53,356 nt of DNA, taken from positions 62,001 to 115,356 of the forward strand of contig KZ538341.1 in assembly GCA_000934665.2 (NCBI GenBank), in the 5' to 3' direction. The DNA comes from Catajapyx aquilonaris. Its lineage: Eukaryota. How positions within the stretch are numbered: the stretch's first letter is position 1; the number at the start of each line of letters is the position of its first letter. Shown piece by piece: positions 41,901-47,900 of the stretch. The notes beneath the pieces are model-generated. The model saw only the letters and a list, made by a program, of their open reading frames with translations. It had not been told where the DNA came from and did not search any database. The position numbers and the translations under genes were made by a program.

Positions 41901-44900
41901 GCACCTGTGTGTGGATAATAACCTTGGATCGTGTGTTCAAGAAATACCGATGCCTAGCAAAAAAGGCTAGGTGCTATACCAACAAGAGTGTGACCTTTAC
42001 CTGAGAGATGACGTGTGCGCTGATTCGTGTCTTTTGCATTTCAGGTCTTAGTGGTTCGCATGCAGATGTGGAACATCGGCGGCAAGTTTTCGGTTCTAAC
42101 GTCATCCCACCAAAACCACCAAAAACCTTTTTACAATTAGTTTGGGAGGCCTTACAAGATGTGACACTTATCATCTTAGAAGTAGCTGCTTTAGTGTCGC
42201 TTCTCCTATCTTTATTCAAACCGAGTGATGAAGAAGGTAAGTTCATGTGATGGTGACAAGTAATATTTTCCCCTCATTTTTTTTTCTCTCTCTCTCTCTC
42301 TTTTTTTCACGAGCATGTCAAAAGTGTATTTGTACTAATGCTGTTATCCCTTGTGTCATGCTTGCACATTGGACTGTTTATAGAACATGGTAAGTCGGAA
42401 TATTCGTCATGATCTAACTACACATTATCTCTCTACCTTTCCCGGCCCCTGTCCTTCCCGTTTTCTCCTGGTGTGATCCTGTGCCGTGTCCCGTGTGTGA
42501 TTGACCTCTCATCCTGATCCCAGAACCGGCAGGTAAAAGTTAACCGTTGCTCTCAAATAAACCGCAGTTGCCGTTTGTCGAGACTTGTATGATCCGTGTG
42601 CGCAAAACGGAGGAATGAATGTCAACAATCCGCTTCCTTGCCCTCCAGATCAGAAGTCCGCACTAGGCAGGCATATTTTTTAAAAAAGTCTTAAGGATGT
42701 GACCTTTTTTTTTTTGGGAGGGGCAGGAATGGAGGGCAATTAAGTTTTCTTTGTCCTGCTTGACTGAGGCGGAAAAATTGGGATGAAGGGAAGAAGCAAG
42801 GGCTTGTGACTTGTTTGAAGGGACCTTCTGTCGTCCAGCCGTACTCGCTGTCAGTCTTGTTATTGAAGCGATGCTGATTTTCCCCAGAAACAAAAGTTGC
42901 ATTTTTGGACAGGATTGTTTGATTTAGAAGGGGCTTTCAATCAGAGTTGGAGCAGAAAGTGCTCGGCATTTAACAGTTGCTGCGAAATGCATGAAAATGT
43001 CCGTGTGGAGGCGAATTGGCTGAAATTTAGCCCTGCGATTTGTGTCAGCCAAAGTCAAGACTCGTAGTCCTTAACGCGATTGCGACAAACTTGTGGCTGT
43101 CAGCCTTTTGGTGGGGGATTAATTTTATTAGATGGAAATCCAGCTGCGGATGTTCATTGCTACTACGGTTTACTATTGCTGTATGTGAATCTAATTGCCT
43201 CCTCTTCACCCTTCCTTCCTGGCTTGCACCTGATTTCACCTGACTGCGGAATGTGATGTGATCCTGTGCCATCCCGTGTGATTTGTCCTCTCTTCCCAGC
43301 TTTTGCGGGTAATGTTTTGATTTAAACCTTACTCCCAAGAGCCTTTTAACAAGTTCTTAACGCCAAAGGTTTTTGGATTTTATTTGTTGGGAATTCGTTA
43401 CATGTATTGGCTACTCTGATTTACAATTTGATTAAGAGGGTAGTGTGCAATGATGGATTTCCTTTAAAGATGTGATGGTTGTATGTCTGACACCTTTGTT
43501 TTTTCTTCTTCACCCGTTCACTGCTCCTTCCTTCCTGATTGCACCTGACTGCACCTGACTGTGAATTGTGATGTGATCCTGTGCCAATCCCGATTTGTCC
43601 TCTCTTCCCGCCCGTGCCTGGTAAATGTTTTTCATTTTCACCATTACTGTACTCTCGAAACTGTACCAACCAACGTCCCAAGTGATTGATATTTTTGTGT
43701 GACATTTTAGAGGTGTAGTTGCCCTTTAACCCCGCTTTCAATTGCGGCAGAGCAAACGAAAGGATGAAGGGACATCCGTGTGAAGTTTGAGGTGTTGTTA
43801 AGAAAACGGATCTTCCAACTTCCTATCCTCTTAACTTATTTGCTCTCCCGTCTTTTTTTAAAAAATTCCAAGTGATTTTTAGACCGGATTTTTTTCCTCC
43901 CCACCAGACATCAGTTGCATTTTGACCAGGTTGTCCGGTTAGAAAAGGGACCTTTTAAAGAGAGTTCAAGCCGAAACTGAAACAGTTGGTACAAAATGAA
44001 CAAATAGCCAAAAAAAAATTCATCGCTCGTTGATCAGTATCGAGCGTAGCATTAGCCAAAAGTCGGTTTTCATAATCCTCGGCAGAAATCAGGATGCAAT
44101 TGATCTCAGGTTGTTTTTTTTTATCTGGTCTCCCATTGTTACAAGTCGAGTTAGCAACCAATAGCTAGCAGAGGGGACGTAAATATTAGTCCTAGTGCCA
44201 AAATTGAATTTCTGTTGCACTTAACCATGCAAGGTGAAGTAATCCGGAAAGTGTGTTTTTTTTTGCGTGTTGGATTGTATGTGTGCCACTTACTATTGAG
44301 ACTTGTGCGTTGGTGTGGTTTGCGACGGAATCATTTAAGGGTCGCGATGGAGCATAGCGAAGTTTTGCAGCATTTTAAAAGTCACGTTAGCTGAAGCAAA
44401 TCTTAAACTGTAAGTGGCATACGACCTGCGTAGTATGCCGAGTGTGATAAAACTGGCGAGTGAACTGCCTGAACTCCAGATTATGCGACAGTGTCTGAGT
44501 CTGCGGTAGTCTCGCCGCAGACTTGAGATAGTTGCGCAGGAGCCTTCCCCCAACCCAAAGCTTATTAATTAGGTGTTTATTTTGCTTTCGGCCTCATCTG
44601 CAGGTGGCTTCAGGGAAGGTAAAACATAGCGCAATTCATGTTGTCGTTTATGGCACTATACCCCCCACTTCTGTATATTACTATAGCTAGAGTTGTTCCT
44701 TCTTTTCCCTCTCTCTCTCTCTCTCGTAAAATACTCGAAAAAGAACTCTTATAGGCCTGTCCTGTCTATGAAACATTCTGTGTCCAAGCTTTCTCGTAGT
44801 TGAATGCCGTTGTTGTCACTTCGTACCTGGAAACTTGTGTGACTCGTTTGAGCGTATTGTTGGAAAGCATTTTTGTGGCAAATTTATTATAATGCGAGCA

Positions 44901-47900
44901 GTTTGATGGAGAAAAAAATAATAATAATTTGACGATTATTGTGGTGCTTCAGATCACTTTATGTCAGGAGCATTCATTGGATGTTGCAGGCCTTGTGGAT
45001 AATAATTAAGGTGTCAAAAAGAAAAATTTAATTGAAAGTGTCGTTGTCTGCCTTAGTGCCCAAAAAAAAAAAAGCGTCAGTGTTGTCTTTATGTTCAATG
45101 GAGGTAAATGTTTTGTGTTTCCAGTGATGCCCAGTGCAGCAATTTAGTTGTTGCAAATGTGAAGCCTTTCATGTCCTGACATTACGAACCTGTTGCATGA
45201 AAGACACGTTGCGTCCACACTTAAACGAAATTTTAATCGCATTTTCCACATTAGTGCGTACGGAAGGTTTTACATTTGCAACGAAGAGTATTGCGTCGCA
45301 CAGTATCTGGTTGGCCGTGCAAAAAAAAAAAAAAAATGACCACCGTAATTTAGTGTCTACACGTTGATTGGTACCTTGGACCCCGACTCGACTTCTGCGG
45401 GATTTCTCGGATGAAAATTAACCTCATGTCTGTTTTTTTCCCTGTCAGCTGGACCTCCCGTACAAGAAGAAGATGAGCACGGGTGGATTGAGGGTCTAGC
45501 GATCTTGATCTCAGTGGTAGTGGTTGTGCTGGTCACCGCCTTCAATGACTACACCAAGGAGAGGCAGTTCAGAGGCCTTCAAAACAGGATTGAAGGGGAG
45601 CACAAATTTTCAGTCATAAGAGGAGGGGAAGTGAGACAAATTCCAGTTGGTGATATTGTGGTCGGGGACATTTGTCAGGTGAGTTTCGCTGGGATTTTAA
45701 AAAAGTCCAGGCCCTGGTGGTGGTTTCCGAACTTTTTCGGATTGCGGAAGATCCACACGTGACGTGTAACGTTGGTCTAAATCGTGTTGAGTAATTGTCA
45801 AGTCACGGAAGCCACCATTTCAGGGGAACGAAAGCGCCTTGGTGTCGTGAGCCCTTCATTTCTAACCTTGCTAACCTTTCAGGTCAAATACGGTGACCTA
45901 CTGCCAGCTGACGGAGTTCTCATACAGAGCAATGACTTAAAAGTAGACGAGTCGTCCTTAACAGGAGAGAGTGACCATGTTAAGAAGGGAACTGATTATG
46001 ACCCACTGCTTCTATCGGGTGAGAATTGCGCTCGATGGCTGGTGGTTTTCATGCGATTATTGTGCTGTATTAACGCAGGCATTTTCCCTCCCACCGTCAG
46101 GTACGCACGTGATGGAAGGCAGTGGGAAGATGATTGTGTTGGCCGTTGGCGTGAACTCGCAGGCTGGGATAATTTTCACATTGCTGGGCGCTGCCGCGGA
46201 CGAGGAAGTGGAAGAGGCTAAAAAACGTAAGAAAGGTCTGTAACCGTCCTTTTCGCTTCGCCTTTTGTTTTTGTGTCGAGTGCTGGCTGTCGGCTGCACG
46301 GTTTGGCCCACCAACCTGCAGCTGGCCAACCGCACGTTTTAAAAAGAAAAGTTGAAAAAAAAAGTACTAACGATGGTGAGCACACTGACATGTTACATGC
46401 TCTCTTTTTCGATTCAATTTTTTGATCGCCCGATATCCATCCCGCCCCTGTTTCTCTCTATATTCAGTAGAAAGTCTCTTAGCATGGGTCGTAACCTGTT
46501 TTTTAAACTTCAGCAAACATTTAGGTATTGCAATCCCCCTGCAGTTTTACTTGCATGCCCGTTTAGATTAGCCGTTTTCCCCCTGACTGGGTATGGCCCA
46601 ATAGATATTTCCCCAATAGATTACTGTATCGTACGTCCCCCACCCCTCCCCTTGTAAGTAGAGTTGACATTTGAATGCGTACATTTGTGCAGTTCAGTAA
46701 TATTATCCCCTGCTCGATTCGGATTGTCAGTGCCTGCAAAGGGTTTTCGTGATTTATGAGAGTAGTGTAATGGTAGTTTTTTGCTCCTGGTATCATCGGC
46801 ACCACCACGTCAGCTCGTTCGAAACTTCCGAAGTAGCTCTTCCGTACACTTGTGGATTAGTTGCAGAATTAGTTTTGTCTCCCTTCAGTTTCGGACTTGG
46901 TCACAAAGAAATTTATATCGAGAGAGCGAAAGCTGAGTGGTTGTTGGTGGTGATACGTTCCATGAAGTAATTTTTTAAAATAGTTATTAGCAATGCCCGA
47001 GCATATTGGCCAGGGACATGGAGCAATTCCCTTCTCCGATGGGACTGGAAAAAAAAAAAAAAAAGCTGCTTTGAACGCTGATTGAACTAACACGCTTGTT
47101 TTTTTTCCCCCCTCCCTGCCCACTTTTTTTTAATTTGCTGCTACACAGAGGACAAGAAGAAAAAGAAGAAAGACTCTGCCGGTAAGTCTGAAAGCTCGCT
47201 TGTGTGGTGGTACTTGTGCATGCGTAAATTGTCCCATCTGCTTTATTTCATCACTTTGGTTTCATTTGTATCCAGTGTCTTACGAATTCATCCGCTTCCT
47301 TCCCGAGTAGGTGATGTGGCGGCAGTGACGGGCAACAGCCACATGCCAATTGCCGATCATGCCAACAAGATGAGTGAAAAGGAACCTGAACCTTCCCCAG
47401 CGCCAGCCAAAGACGAAGAAGTAGGGAAGAAGGAGAAGTCCGTGCTCCAAGCTAAACTCACTAGACTGGCCATACAGATAGGATATGCGGGTGCGTTTCC
47501 GCTCGGTGCATAATCCGCTCGAGCACGCCGTCTAGAAGTGATGCAGCATGAAATTTTTGTGGGTGGTTGAAAGCGACATAAAAATCTGCTTTATCTGTAG
47601 GCTCGACGATTGCTGTGATGACGGTGGTCATCCTGGTGGTCAGGTTCAGTGTGCAGAAGTTTCTCATCGGGGACGAGGTGTGGAAGAGCAGCTATGCCAA
47701 CAACTTTGTGAAATTCATAATCATCGGTGTGACTGTGCTCGTGGTTGCGGTTCCAGAGGGGCTTCCATTAGCTGTAACCTTATCCCTAGCGTATTCTGTC
47801 AAGGTGAGATTCGCTGCTGGGTCGAGTCGAAGATTTTTTGTTTGTTTTTGTAATCGTGTGGACGCCTTCCTCCGCAGAAAATGATGAAAGACAACAACTT

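Follow-up and report, generated by a model that had tools for sequence, protein, structure and literature searches.

The sequence features of the TM1-TM2 intron of this pancrustacean PMCA gene tilt towards a cluster of alternatively spliced, frame-preserving candidate microexons, microexons being exons of 27 nt or less. In Catajapyx aquilonaris, the cluster consists of four candidate units, A to D. Support is strongest for units B and C. Unit A is likely, and D, with no branch-like site and only a short AG-free zone (29 nt), is doubtful and the weakest of the four. Each unit would be a self-contained cassette, composed of a CUAAY branch site at a distance upstream, an extended CU/UGC-rich tract free of AG, then CAG, a 6-15-nt body with a final G, and GTAA. 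All units run from phase 1 to phase 1, so that any combination would be frame-neutral. Inclusion would add 2-5 residues per unit to the acidic extracellular TM1-TM2 loop. The stretch analysed, referred to as the window, comprises 53,356 nt of the C. aquilonaris contig KZ538341.1 (positions 62,001-115,356 of the forward strand; assembly GCA_000934665.2).

Host intron and candidate units

The flanking exons align with human PMCA1 up to residue 131 and from residue 147, which brackets the intron between TM1 and TM2, where the first-pass annotation had placed it. In the P2B-ATPase topology, the TM1-TM2 loop is on the extracellular side. Exon 2 ends at 42236 with ...AAA CCG AGT GAT GAA GAA G/gtaagt (a slash marks a splice boundary; the 5' splice site is AAG/gtaagt), and the exon 3 acceptor at 45449 reads cctgtcag/CT GGA CCT. 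The search with exon 3 found no protein or transcript from C. aquilonaris itself, and the best match, from other taxa, is 93% identical. The coordinates of all features are collected in Table 1.

Table 1. Features of the PMCA TM1-TM2 intron and its flanking exons, in window positions
Feature	Position	Strand	Description
PMCA exon 2	42045-42236	+	ends LFKPSDEE, last base G, phase 1; aligns with human PMCA1 residues 71-131
Phase-1 intron of the TM1-TM2 loop, host of the candidate microexons	42237-45448	+	3.2 kb
CU-repeat tract 5' of unit A	42266-42298	+	76% similar tract at 44693-44725, 3' of unit D
Unit A (candidate)	42384-42389	+	6 nt; atag/AACATG/gtaagt; inserts EH
Upstream element of B	42395-42523	+	CUAAC at 42414; pyrimidine-rich, AG-free 127 nt; exact 13-mer GTGATCCTGTGCC at 42473-42485
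Unit B (candidate)	42524-42532	+	9 nt; ccag/AACCGGCAG/gtaaaa; inserts EPA
B-downstream sequence	42545-43190	+	homologous to C'-downstream; best stretch 42755-42989 with 43731-43998
Upstream element of C	43144-43299	+	CUAAU at 43191; AG-free 154 nt; 13-mer GTGATCCTGTGCC at 43258-43270
Unit C (candidate)	43300-43308	+	9 nt; ccag/CTTTTGCGG/gtaatg; inserts AFA
Third copy C'	43517-43632	+	13-mer GTGATCCTGTGCC at 43573-43585; 9-nt body 43611-43619; /gtaaat
Unit D (candidate)	44604-44618	+	15 nt; gcag/GTGGCTTCAGGGAAG/gtaaaa; inserts GGFRE
PMCA exon 3	45449-45678	+	first residue A, ends GDICQ; aligns with human PMCA1 residues 147-217

Re-inspection of the sequence gave the same coordinates, sizes and inserts for the four AG/n/GT units as the first-pass annotation. 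Its statement that they preserve the frame is also correct, as 6, 9, 9 and 15 nt are multiples of 3 and stop-free in phase 1. Spliced between exon 2 (final G) and exon 3 (initial CT), the units encode EH-A, EPA-A, AFA-A and GGFRE-A with zero stops. The AG-free zones, branch-like sites and TGC motifs reported for A, B and C are likewise present. The zones measure 57 nt in A, 127 nt in B, 154 nt in C and 29 nt in D. Branch sites of the CUAAY type occur 46 nt 5' of A (CUAAU), at -107 of B (CUAAC) and at -106 of C (CUAAU), and none was found upstream of D. The upstream zones of B and C contain UCUC/CUCU seven and four times, respectively. TGC is found upstream of all four units (A, -21/-25/-45; B, -42; C, -33/-55/-75 and further; D, -5/-21; background 0.018 per nt), but in B and C it is not tightly beside the AG. 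Within the intron, the top-scoring 5' splice site is that of unit A (ATG/gtaagt). Unit D opens with GT right after its AG (gcag/GTGGCT), which is a weak donor, and A, B and C have no initial GT. CU-repeat tracts lie on both sides of the array. A site-A-like cassette of 54 nt in phase 1 is also located within the window, at 46322-46375.

The bare pattern is frequent, with 138 AG-(3n)-GT units of 3-30 nt in the PMCA intron. Units A-D have the top four 5' splice-site scores among these 138 (6.76, 3.97, 3.97 and 1.89; the fifth is 1.15), as given by a rough weight matrix that was entered by hand from consensus frequencies and is not MaxEnt. A joint filter combined a 5' splice-site score of at least 1.8, at least 60% pyrimidine in 25 nt, and an AG-free zone of at least 25 nt. 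Five units of the PMCA intron pass it, and four of the five are multiples of 3. The filter retains 41 units on the + strand of the whole window (53.4 kb), including 16 multiples of 3, and 21 on the - strand, including five. The gene's first intron (3.1 kb) has a single passing unit, of 7 nt, and the orthologous introns at 14 other loci (~18.3 kb) yield nine, with three multiples of 3. The rest of the window carries filtered units at a density of 0.4-0.7 per kb. The excess is modest, with P ~0.002-0.04 by Poisson arithmetic under post hoc thresholds and with B and C non-independent, since these two represent a single evolutionary event.

The duplicated cassette

Three copies of an element of ~115 nt, belonging to B, C and C', are found inside 1.2 kb. 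All are oriented like the gene, and each ends in a donor-like GGTAA. The 13-mer GTGATCCTGTGCC has exactly three occurrences in 53 kb, all on the + strand of the PMCA intron and 39-52 nt before ..GGTAA. A search of both strands of the 53-kb window at up to two mismatches found no further copy. B and C have in common CUAAY at -107/-106, an extended pyrimidine tract lacking AG, then CCCAG, a body of 9 nt, and GGTAA. The intron has three AG-free runs of 127-211 nt, and they coincide exactly with the three copies. C' carries CCC-GC in place of the CCC-AG of C. It is a decayed copy and is unusable as an exon because AG is absent over 211 nt.

The similarity score of the B and C elements is 51, which is reached by 0/300 shuffles (maximum 44), and the score of 135 between C and C' is also reached by 0/300. 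The sequences downstream of B and C' are homologous as well, with a score of 73 (shuffles: mean 27.9, maximum 42, 0/300 reaching 73) and an identity of only 161/285. Judged from these alignments, B and C are paralogues and the downstream homology represents an old segmental duplication. That B and C retain their splice architecture, with the flank only 161/285 identical, is consistent with constraint.

The cluster would have grown by local tandem duplication of the entire cassette along with the control element in the intron. B and the C/C' lineage would stem from an old duplication, and C and C' from a later short one, followed by the loss of AG in C'. The locus would thus be a clean example of microexon origin, in which the full cassette and its intronic control element were duplicated, the 9-nt body diverged, and one copy died. 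The paralogy of B and C and the decayed third copy C' (43611-19) are new here.

The same junction in relatives

Proteins with identical flanks were compared as isoforms in 51 groups of at least two proteins. In 3/51 groups, public isoform models differ by an in-frame insert placed precisely where exons 2 and 3 join. In the lobster Panulirus ornatus, +APE is the sole difference between P0167 and P0166, and in the moth Hyposmocoma kahamanoa, +IDE is the sole difference between P0244 and P0265. The models of the louse Menopon gallinae differ by +DE at the junction. These variants of 2-3 residues could come from phase-1 microexons 6 or 9 nt long. In contrast to the candidate array of C. aquilonaris, each of the three species has a single insert annotated in its isoform models, and the peptides are other ones. 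In Portunus, +AAAE plus V>M separate P0235 from P0236. Inserts equivalent to 6-12 nt are therefore in use at the junction in relatives. Loop length variants are absent from 48/51 groups, which include Drosophila species, Calliphora vicina (7 isoforms), Euwallacea, Phlebotomus argentipes (5), Homarus americanus (4) and Danaus plexippus (9). Relatives combine the loop insert freely with variants of sites A and C.

Genomic loci of relatives contain comparable units. In the scale-insect-like locus L001, exon 2 ends in ..KPADES G/gtgagt and is followed by catcag/15 nt/gtaatt (GAPRP) and then by exon 3. The peptide GAPRP corresponds to AGPRP in six Planococcus citri proteins. Five termite-like loci share ~90% identity. 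In their 6.8-kb alignment, the longest stretch conserved in full (68 nt) ends in cttcag/18 nt/gtaaat, and this unit is phase-1 compatible with a final G. The termite-like loci also have a conserved 26-nt block, tgtag/GTGACA.., whose length is not divisible by 3 and which resembles a recursive site.

The first-pass annotation had pointed to relatives as a place to look for loop variants. Inserts of 2-3 aa are indeed present at the junction (APE, IDE, DE), but none equals EH, EPA, AFA or GGFRE, and orthologous units were not found. The four peptides occur in no loop of 330 proteins (328 PMCA relatives and two window exon translations), and the 13-mer occurs in 0/80 related loci. On these grounds, A-D individually appear to have no orthologous conservation. 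AFA and GGFRE are unlike the inserts of relatives, which are acidic with small residues. The literature searched gave no published description of PMCA TM1-TM2 loop microexons, in line with the annotation, which knew of none. The loop variants in the lobster, moth and louse models are already public though unremarked.

Alternative readings and known systems

It is possible, if on the unlikely side, that the units are cryptic splice-like sites that are never used, that the likeness of B, C and C' is a neutrally decaying local duplication, and that the frame is luck. The abundance of AG-3n-GT units in the intron (138) and the filtered units across the rest of the window (0.4-0.7 per kb) fit this reading, as do the lack of A-D orthologues in 80 related loci or 328 related proteins and the invariance of the loop in 48/51 isoform groups. 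C' lacks AG and retains the 13-mer and GGTAA, so the likeness of the elements can outlast exon function. However, four of the five filtered units are in frame and are also the four best donors, and the three AG-free runs of 127-211 nt coincide exactly with the three copies. B and C also share the CUAAY distance, CCCAG, the 9-nt body and GGTAA despite a flank that is 161/285 identical, and relatives do splice mini-inserts at the same junction (isoform models; L001). These observations argue for candidate microexons rather than unused sites.

A role of the units in the removal or regulation of the 3.2-kb intron, without a contribution to the protein, is improbable. They would then be recursive or decoy exons, or CU/UGC elements that regulate exons 2 and 3. 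A weak donor (gcag/GTGGCT) would be restored if exon 2 were joined to D, the termite-like 26-nt block has the look of a recursive site, and the array is flanked by CU-repeat tracts. A recursive splice site is a 3' splice site followed by a donor (AG/GTRAGT) in a very long intron, and in flies recursive splicing has been described in long introns, beside which 3.2 kb is short. Recursive splice sites were rejected as an identity of A, B and C, which have no initial GT; D alone, with the weak AG/GTGGCT, may or may not be one. An in-frame length of all four units would moreover be needless for intron removal, and neither a complement of the 13-mer (+ strand, up to two mismatches) nor a conserved fold (-6.1 kcal/mol, with a positive covariation term) was found. 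It is very improbable that the repeated element is a mobile-element fragment or a cis element with a role outside splicing, for instance an enhancer, and that its exon look is incidental. The three copies within 1.2 kb would suit such an origin, but every copy has the gene's orientation and a terminal donor-like GGTAA, and zero copies exist elsewhere on either strand of the 53-kb window (13-mer, up to two mismatches). No Rfam match was found. The 21 stop-to-stop frames of at least 60 aa in the intron were read by eye, and none is gene- or mobile-element-like; several merely overlap exons 2 and 3.

The candidate microexon cluster resembles arthropod arrays of the Dscam1 type in its local tandem duplication, its units of equal length (B, C, C') and the conserved intronic element before each. 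The exons of those arrays are domain-sized, whereas the units here have 9 nt. A mutually exclusive exon cluster with docking/selector RNA pairing was rejected, as the + strand has no complement of the 13-mer GTGATCCTGTGCC at up to two mismatches. Conserved pairing was not found in the consensus fold (-6.1 kcal/mol, positive covariation term), and duplex predictions pointed only to the purine-rich exon 3.

PMCA isoform diversity is framed around two cytosolic sites, A and C. The array here shares with them the gene family and the use of small cassette inserts. Site A belongs to the first loop on the cytosolic side and site C to the C-terminal calmodulin-binding region, whereas the array here is in TM1-TM2. 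Identity with either site is ruled out by the position of the intron between the residues aligned with human PMCA1 131 and 147. The portions of PMC6256341 and PMC8428515 available here name sites A and C only. It is tentatively suggested that pancrustacean PMCA has a third, undescribed splice hotspot in the extracellular TM1-TM2 loop, where a conserved phase-1 intron would repeatedly gain and lose 6-18-nt microexons via tandem duplication of entire cassettes. In C. aquilonaris, up to four cassettes might be combined cell-type-specifically (probably neuronal and Srrm234-dependent), setting loop length and charge at the outward gate. A regulated insert in the sole outward-facing part of TM1-TM2 would, if true, amount to another mode of tuning, one that could bear on the Ca2+ exit/H+ entry gate or on contacts with extracellular partners, e.g., basigin/neuroplastin-type subunits.

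The units would be included in C. aquilonaris mRNA in a regulated manner, possibly neuronal and of the Srrm234/eMIC type, and may affect the extracellular gate of the pump or an accessory subunit. Like neuronal microexons under the control of the SRRM3/SRRM4 eMIC domain (Srrm234 in flies), they are of 6-15 nt, frame-preserving, and located in a surface loop of a Ca2+-handling membrane protein. The cis code of fly eMIC exons comprises a long AG exclusion zone, a strong CUAAY, a CU-rich tract and UGC, according to section 10 of PMC8797185. The AG-free zone, CUAAY and CU-rich tract of A-C fit this upstream code, and UGC is present upstream of them, whereas D fails (29 nt, no CUAAY). In eMIC microexons UGC is near the 3' splice site, whereas the nearest one is at -42 in B and at -33 in C. 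The donors here are strong, whereas PMC8797185 reports weak ones for fly eMIC exons. Fly PMCA is itself an eMIC target, with a sensitive microexon of 5 nt at chr4:337536-337540 (PMC8797185, table S2). From the order of exon coordinates, in which it stands at the low-coordinate end of the PMCA events listed there, this microexon is taken to belong to the gene's 3' portion rather than to the TM1-TM2 loop.

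The loop intron of the PMCA gene

The TM1-TM2 loop of P2B-ATPases is extracellular by established topology. The PMCA gene of the window was mapped by tblastn with two relatives as queries. Its exon 2 aligns with residues 71-131 of human PMCA1 and its exon 3 with residues 147-217 (PDB 6a69), so the 3212-nt, phase-1 intron between them interrupts the TM1-TM2 loop. In protein database matches, the best relatives of exon 3 are other pancrustaceans at no more than 93% identity. The N-domain exon has 71-77% identity, alike for insects, decapods, and springtails, and summed tblastn identity is 66-70% against each of the ordinary single-gene models of insects that rank in the top 40. 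These values place the organism no more closely than among insect-like pancrustaceans. The Lingula anatina model P0003 (1503 aa), one of the related proteins collected, contains an identical TM1-loop-TM2 segment twice, at residues 125 and 358, which inflates its scores; the likely cause is a duplication in the gene model or the assembly.

Features of the PMCA gene and of the surrounding window
Feature	Coordinates	Strand	Detail
Assembly gap 1	16046-16365		N run, X in translations
Assembly gap 2	27602-27845		N run, X in translations
PMCA gene	38795 to beyond 51041	+	
PMCA exon 2	42045-42236	+	last base single G, then gtaagt
Loop intron	42237-45448		
CU-repeat tract 1	42266-42298		just upstream of A
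Unit A	42384-42389		candidate microexon
Unit B	42524-42532		candidate microexon
Unit C	43300-43308		candidate microexon
C'	43517-43632		decayed third copy of the B/C cassette
Unit D	44604-44618		candidate microexon
CU-repeat tract 2	44693-44725		about 75 nt downstream of D
PMCA exon 3	45449-45678	+	begins CT GGA
Exon 3 start	45449-45465		encodes AGPPV
Lysine-rich unit	46322-46375		54 nt, phase 1, stop-free; cctgcag, then CTGGCC..AACGATG, then gtgagc

The first-pass annotation described an array of four microexons in this intron. Units A to D lie where it placed them and, joined to the flanking G and CT, would encode EH, EPA, AFA, and GGFRE without stops. The extended AG-free zones that it ascribed to A, B, and C measure 57, 127, and 154 nt. 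The bare AG-(3n)-GT pattern of 3-30 nt is not unusual, since the intron contains 138 such units. A to D have the four top donors among the intron's units, with scores of 6.76, 3.97, 3.97, and 1.89 (next 1.15), on a rough weight matrix of consensus frequencies rather than MaxEnt.

A joint filter was applied, comprising a donor score of at least 1.8, at least 60% pyrimidines in 25 nt, and an AG-free zone of at least 25 nt. Five units pass in the loop intron, 4/5 being multiples of 3. The window (53.4 kb) has 41 such units on the + strand (16/41 in frame) and 21 on the - strand (5/21), and intron 1 of the PMCA gene (3.1 kb) has a single unit of 7 nt. Orthologous introns from 14 other loci, about 18.3 kb together, show no general enrichment, with 9 filtered units of which 3 are in frame. 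The excess of splice-competent in-frame units in the loop intron, with a Poisson P of roughly 0.002-0.04 from the control rates, is suggestive only, because the thresholds were set after the candidates had been seen and B and C are related. AG-free runs of at least 100 nt number 17 on the + strand of the window. Three of them lie in the loop intron, a mild excess, the three being paralogues, and two, the longest, are the assembly gaps.

The two CU-repeat tracts, 76% identical, bracket the candidate array and could be PTB-type repressor binding sites. The lysine-rich unit sits in the intron following ..EEAKKRKK, where relatives have the classical site A insert (EAKKQRKK..), and probably represents the gene's own site A cassette. 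Over 38500-53356, sequencing run X1 (kind unspecified, share 0.49) yields short contigs only, in introns as well, and not a single joint. Its pattern resembles DNA sequenced at low coverage and is uninformative on expression.

B, C, and C' as a duplicated cassette

The 13-mer GTGATCCTGTGCC has exactly three occurrences in the 53-kb window, all in the loop intron on the + strand, each 39-52 nt ahead of a ..GGTAA. B and C each have a CUAAY (at -107 and -106, respectively), a CU-rich tract devoid of AG, CCCAG, a body of 9 nt, and GGTAA. Judged by sequence, the two are duplicates of a single cassette, a relationship beyond the first-pass annotation. C' has the upstream element, which includes the 13-mer, and the donor. 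Splicing of C' as an exon is precluded by GC in place of the expected acceptor AG and by the lack of any AG over 211 nt.

The elements of B and C align with a score of 51 (shuffle maximum 44), those of C and C' with 135, and the sequences downstream of B and C' with 73 (shuffle mean 27.9, maximum 42); in each comparison 0/300 shuffles reach the score. On these alignments, the element similarities and the homology downstream of B and C' are real. No homology was found between the sequences downstream of C and C' (135/300 shuffles reach the score), and no similarity for two control segments of intron 1 (246/300 and 111/300). The simplest history would be a two-step one. B and the C/C' lineage would stem from an old tandem duplication (about 0.5 kb), and C and C' from a more recent one (about 115 nt), after which C' would have lost its acceptor.

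Readings of the unit cluster

The balance tips slightly towards a loop intron whose units form a cluster of alternatively spliced cassette microexons; the support is stronger for B, C, and A than for D. Each cassette would be defined by a branch site far upstream, a CU/UGC tract free of AG, and a strong donor. The units could be combined in any way, and each would lengthen the ectoloop by 2-5 residues. It is the cis code that suggests regulated, possibly neuronal, inclusion. The old duplicated flank is only 161/285 identical, yet the splice architecture of B and C is fully kept and both bodies are still 9 nt long, as expected if a cassette in use were under selection. The retained similarity is also a warning, since C' keeps much of its element though unusable. 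Cryptic sites that are never used, in a local duplication undergoing neutral decay, are a possible, if less probable, source of the same features. Intron-processing or decoy elements without a protein role are unlikely for the cluster, and their best case is unit D, which starts AG/GT.

A repeat or another kind of cis element is very improbable as the source of the repeated sequence. An RNA docking/selector system was rejected. The complement of the 13-mer does not occur on the + strand, the duplex partners of the element found with duplexfold are purine-rich exon 3 stretches only, none of them specific, and alifold gives a weak consensus and no conserved fold. A known RNA family was also rejected, with no match at E<=1 in 42000-45700. 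A coding mobile element was likewise rejected, as none of the 21 stop-to-stop frames of at least 60 aa overlapping 42237-45448 looks like one by eye, and none is gene-like.

Loop inserts in relatives

Of 328 related PMCA proteins collected, 292 were usable and were grouped by identical loop flanks. Among 51 flank groups with at least two proteins, 3 vary in length, in frame, precisely where exon 2 meets exon 3, and 48 have no junction length variant. Nine of the 48 differ without a junction insert and represent sister species with identical flanks; 8 of these have substitutions only, and the Cotesia pair has a one-residue length difference as well. The variable loops are EDKKA[APE]VGFHDE in Panulirus ornatus (P0167 vs P0166, no other difference), DDPNA[IDE]IGHLDE in Hyposmocoma kahamanoa (P0244 vs P0265, no other difference), and QAET[DE]VVGP in Menopon gallinae. 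Two models of Portunus trituberculatus differ by AAAE and V>M. The inserts in Panulirus, Hyposmocoma, Menopon, and Portunus fit a 6-12-nt phase-1 microexon. Loop inserts of relatives combine freely with site A and site C variants. Most annotated species have a single loop form, including many Drosophila, Calliphora, Euwallacea, Phlebotomus, Homarus, and Danaus, which counts against the generality of loop variation.

The first-pass annotation is confirmed in what it observed, and its interpretation is upheld in part. Small in-frame junction inserts (APE, IDE, DE) are real in relatives. The four peptides of the window and its 13-mer do not recur there. The candidate peptides (EPAA, AFAA, GGFRE, EHAG, and others) are absent as inserts from the loops of the 330 proteins compared, the sole match being EEEH, in the invariant portion of Drosophila loops, and GTGATCCTGTGCC is absent from 80 related loci.

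The mini-inserts are apparently unreported in print, yet already visible in public isoform models. The first-pass annotation knew of no description, and full-text searches found no paper whose title or abstract opening describes splicing of the PMCA TM1-TM2 loop. The abstract openings of two PMCA papers name sites A and C only (PMC6256341, PMC8428515). Section 10 of PMC8797185 sets out the cis code for eMIC exons in the fly, and table S2 of that paper includes an eMIC-sensitive 5-nt microexon of fly PMCA (chr4:337536-337540). From exon-coordinate order, this microexon is taken to belong to the gene's 3' portion rather than to the loop.

Metagenome contigs of relatives lend genomic support to such loop units. 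Identity among five termite-like loci is about 90%, and their 6.8-kb alignment contains only four fully conserved runs of at least 30 nt. The longest, 68 nt, ends inside a candidate 18-nt unit, CCGATAACAGCAATGATG, preceded by cttcag and followed by gtaaat, which is phase-1 compatible with a final G. A second, almost fully conserved block consists of ttgtag, GTGACACTTGCATTATCAGCATGCTG, and gtaaat (L011 5404-5429; also L007, L012, L017, and L024). At 26 nt, not a multiple of 3, and with GT right after the acceptor, the GTGACACTTGCATTATCAGCATGCTG block looks like a recursive-splice site or poison exon. The exon 3 acceptor region ..cacttttgtgatttcttgctgttctag is conserved though the first exon 3 codons vary (L007, L010-L013, L017, L020, L021, L023, and L024). 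Just upstream of exon 3, termite-like contigs share the word tgtgattt with the C element of the window.

The scale-insect-like locus L001 has ..KPADES G before gtgagt, then GCGCGCCTCGACCAG (GAPRP) between catcag and gtaatt, and then exon 3. Its GAPRP matches AGPRP of six Planococcus citri proteins, and a Parthenolecanium model is without it. The AGPPV at the exon 3 start of the window resembles this GAPRP/AGPRP peptide (L001 571-585), and a 15-nt microexon of the scale-insect type may have fused to exon 3 in the window's lineage.
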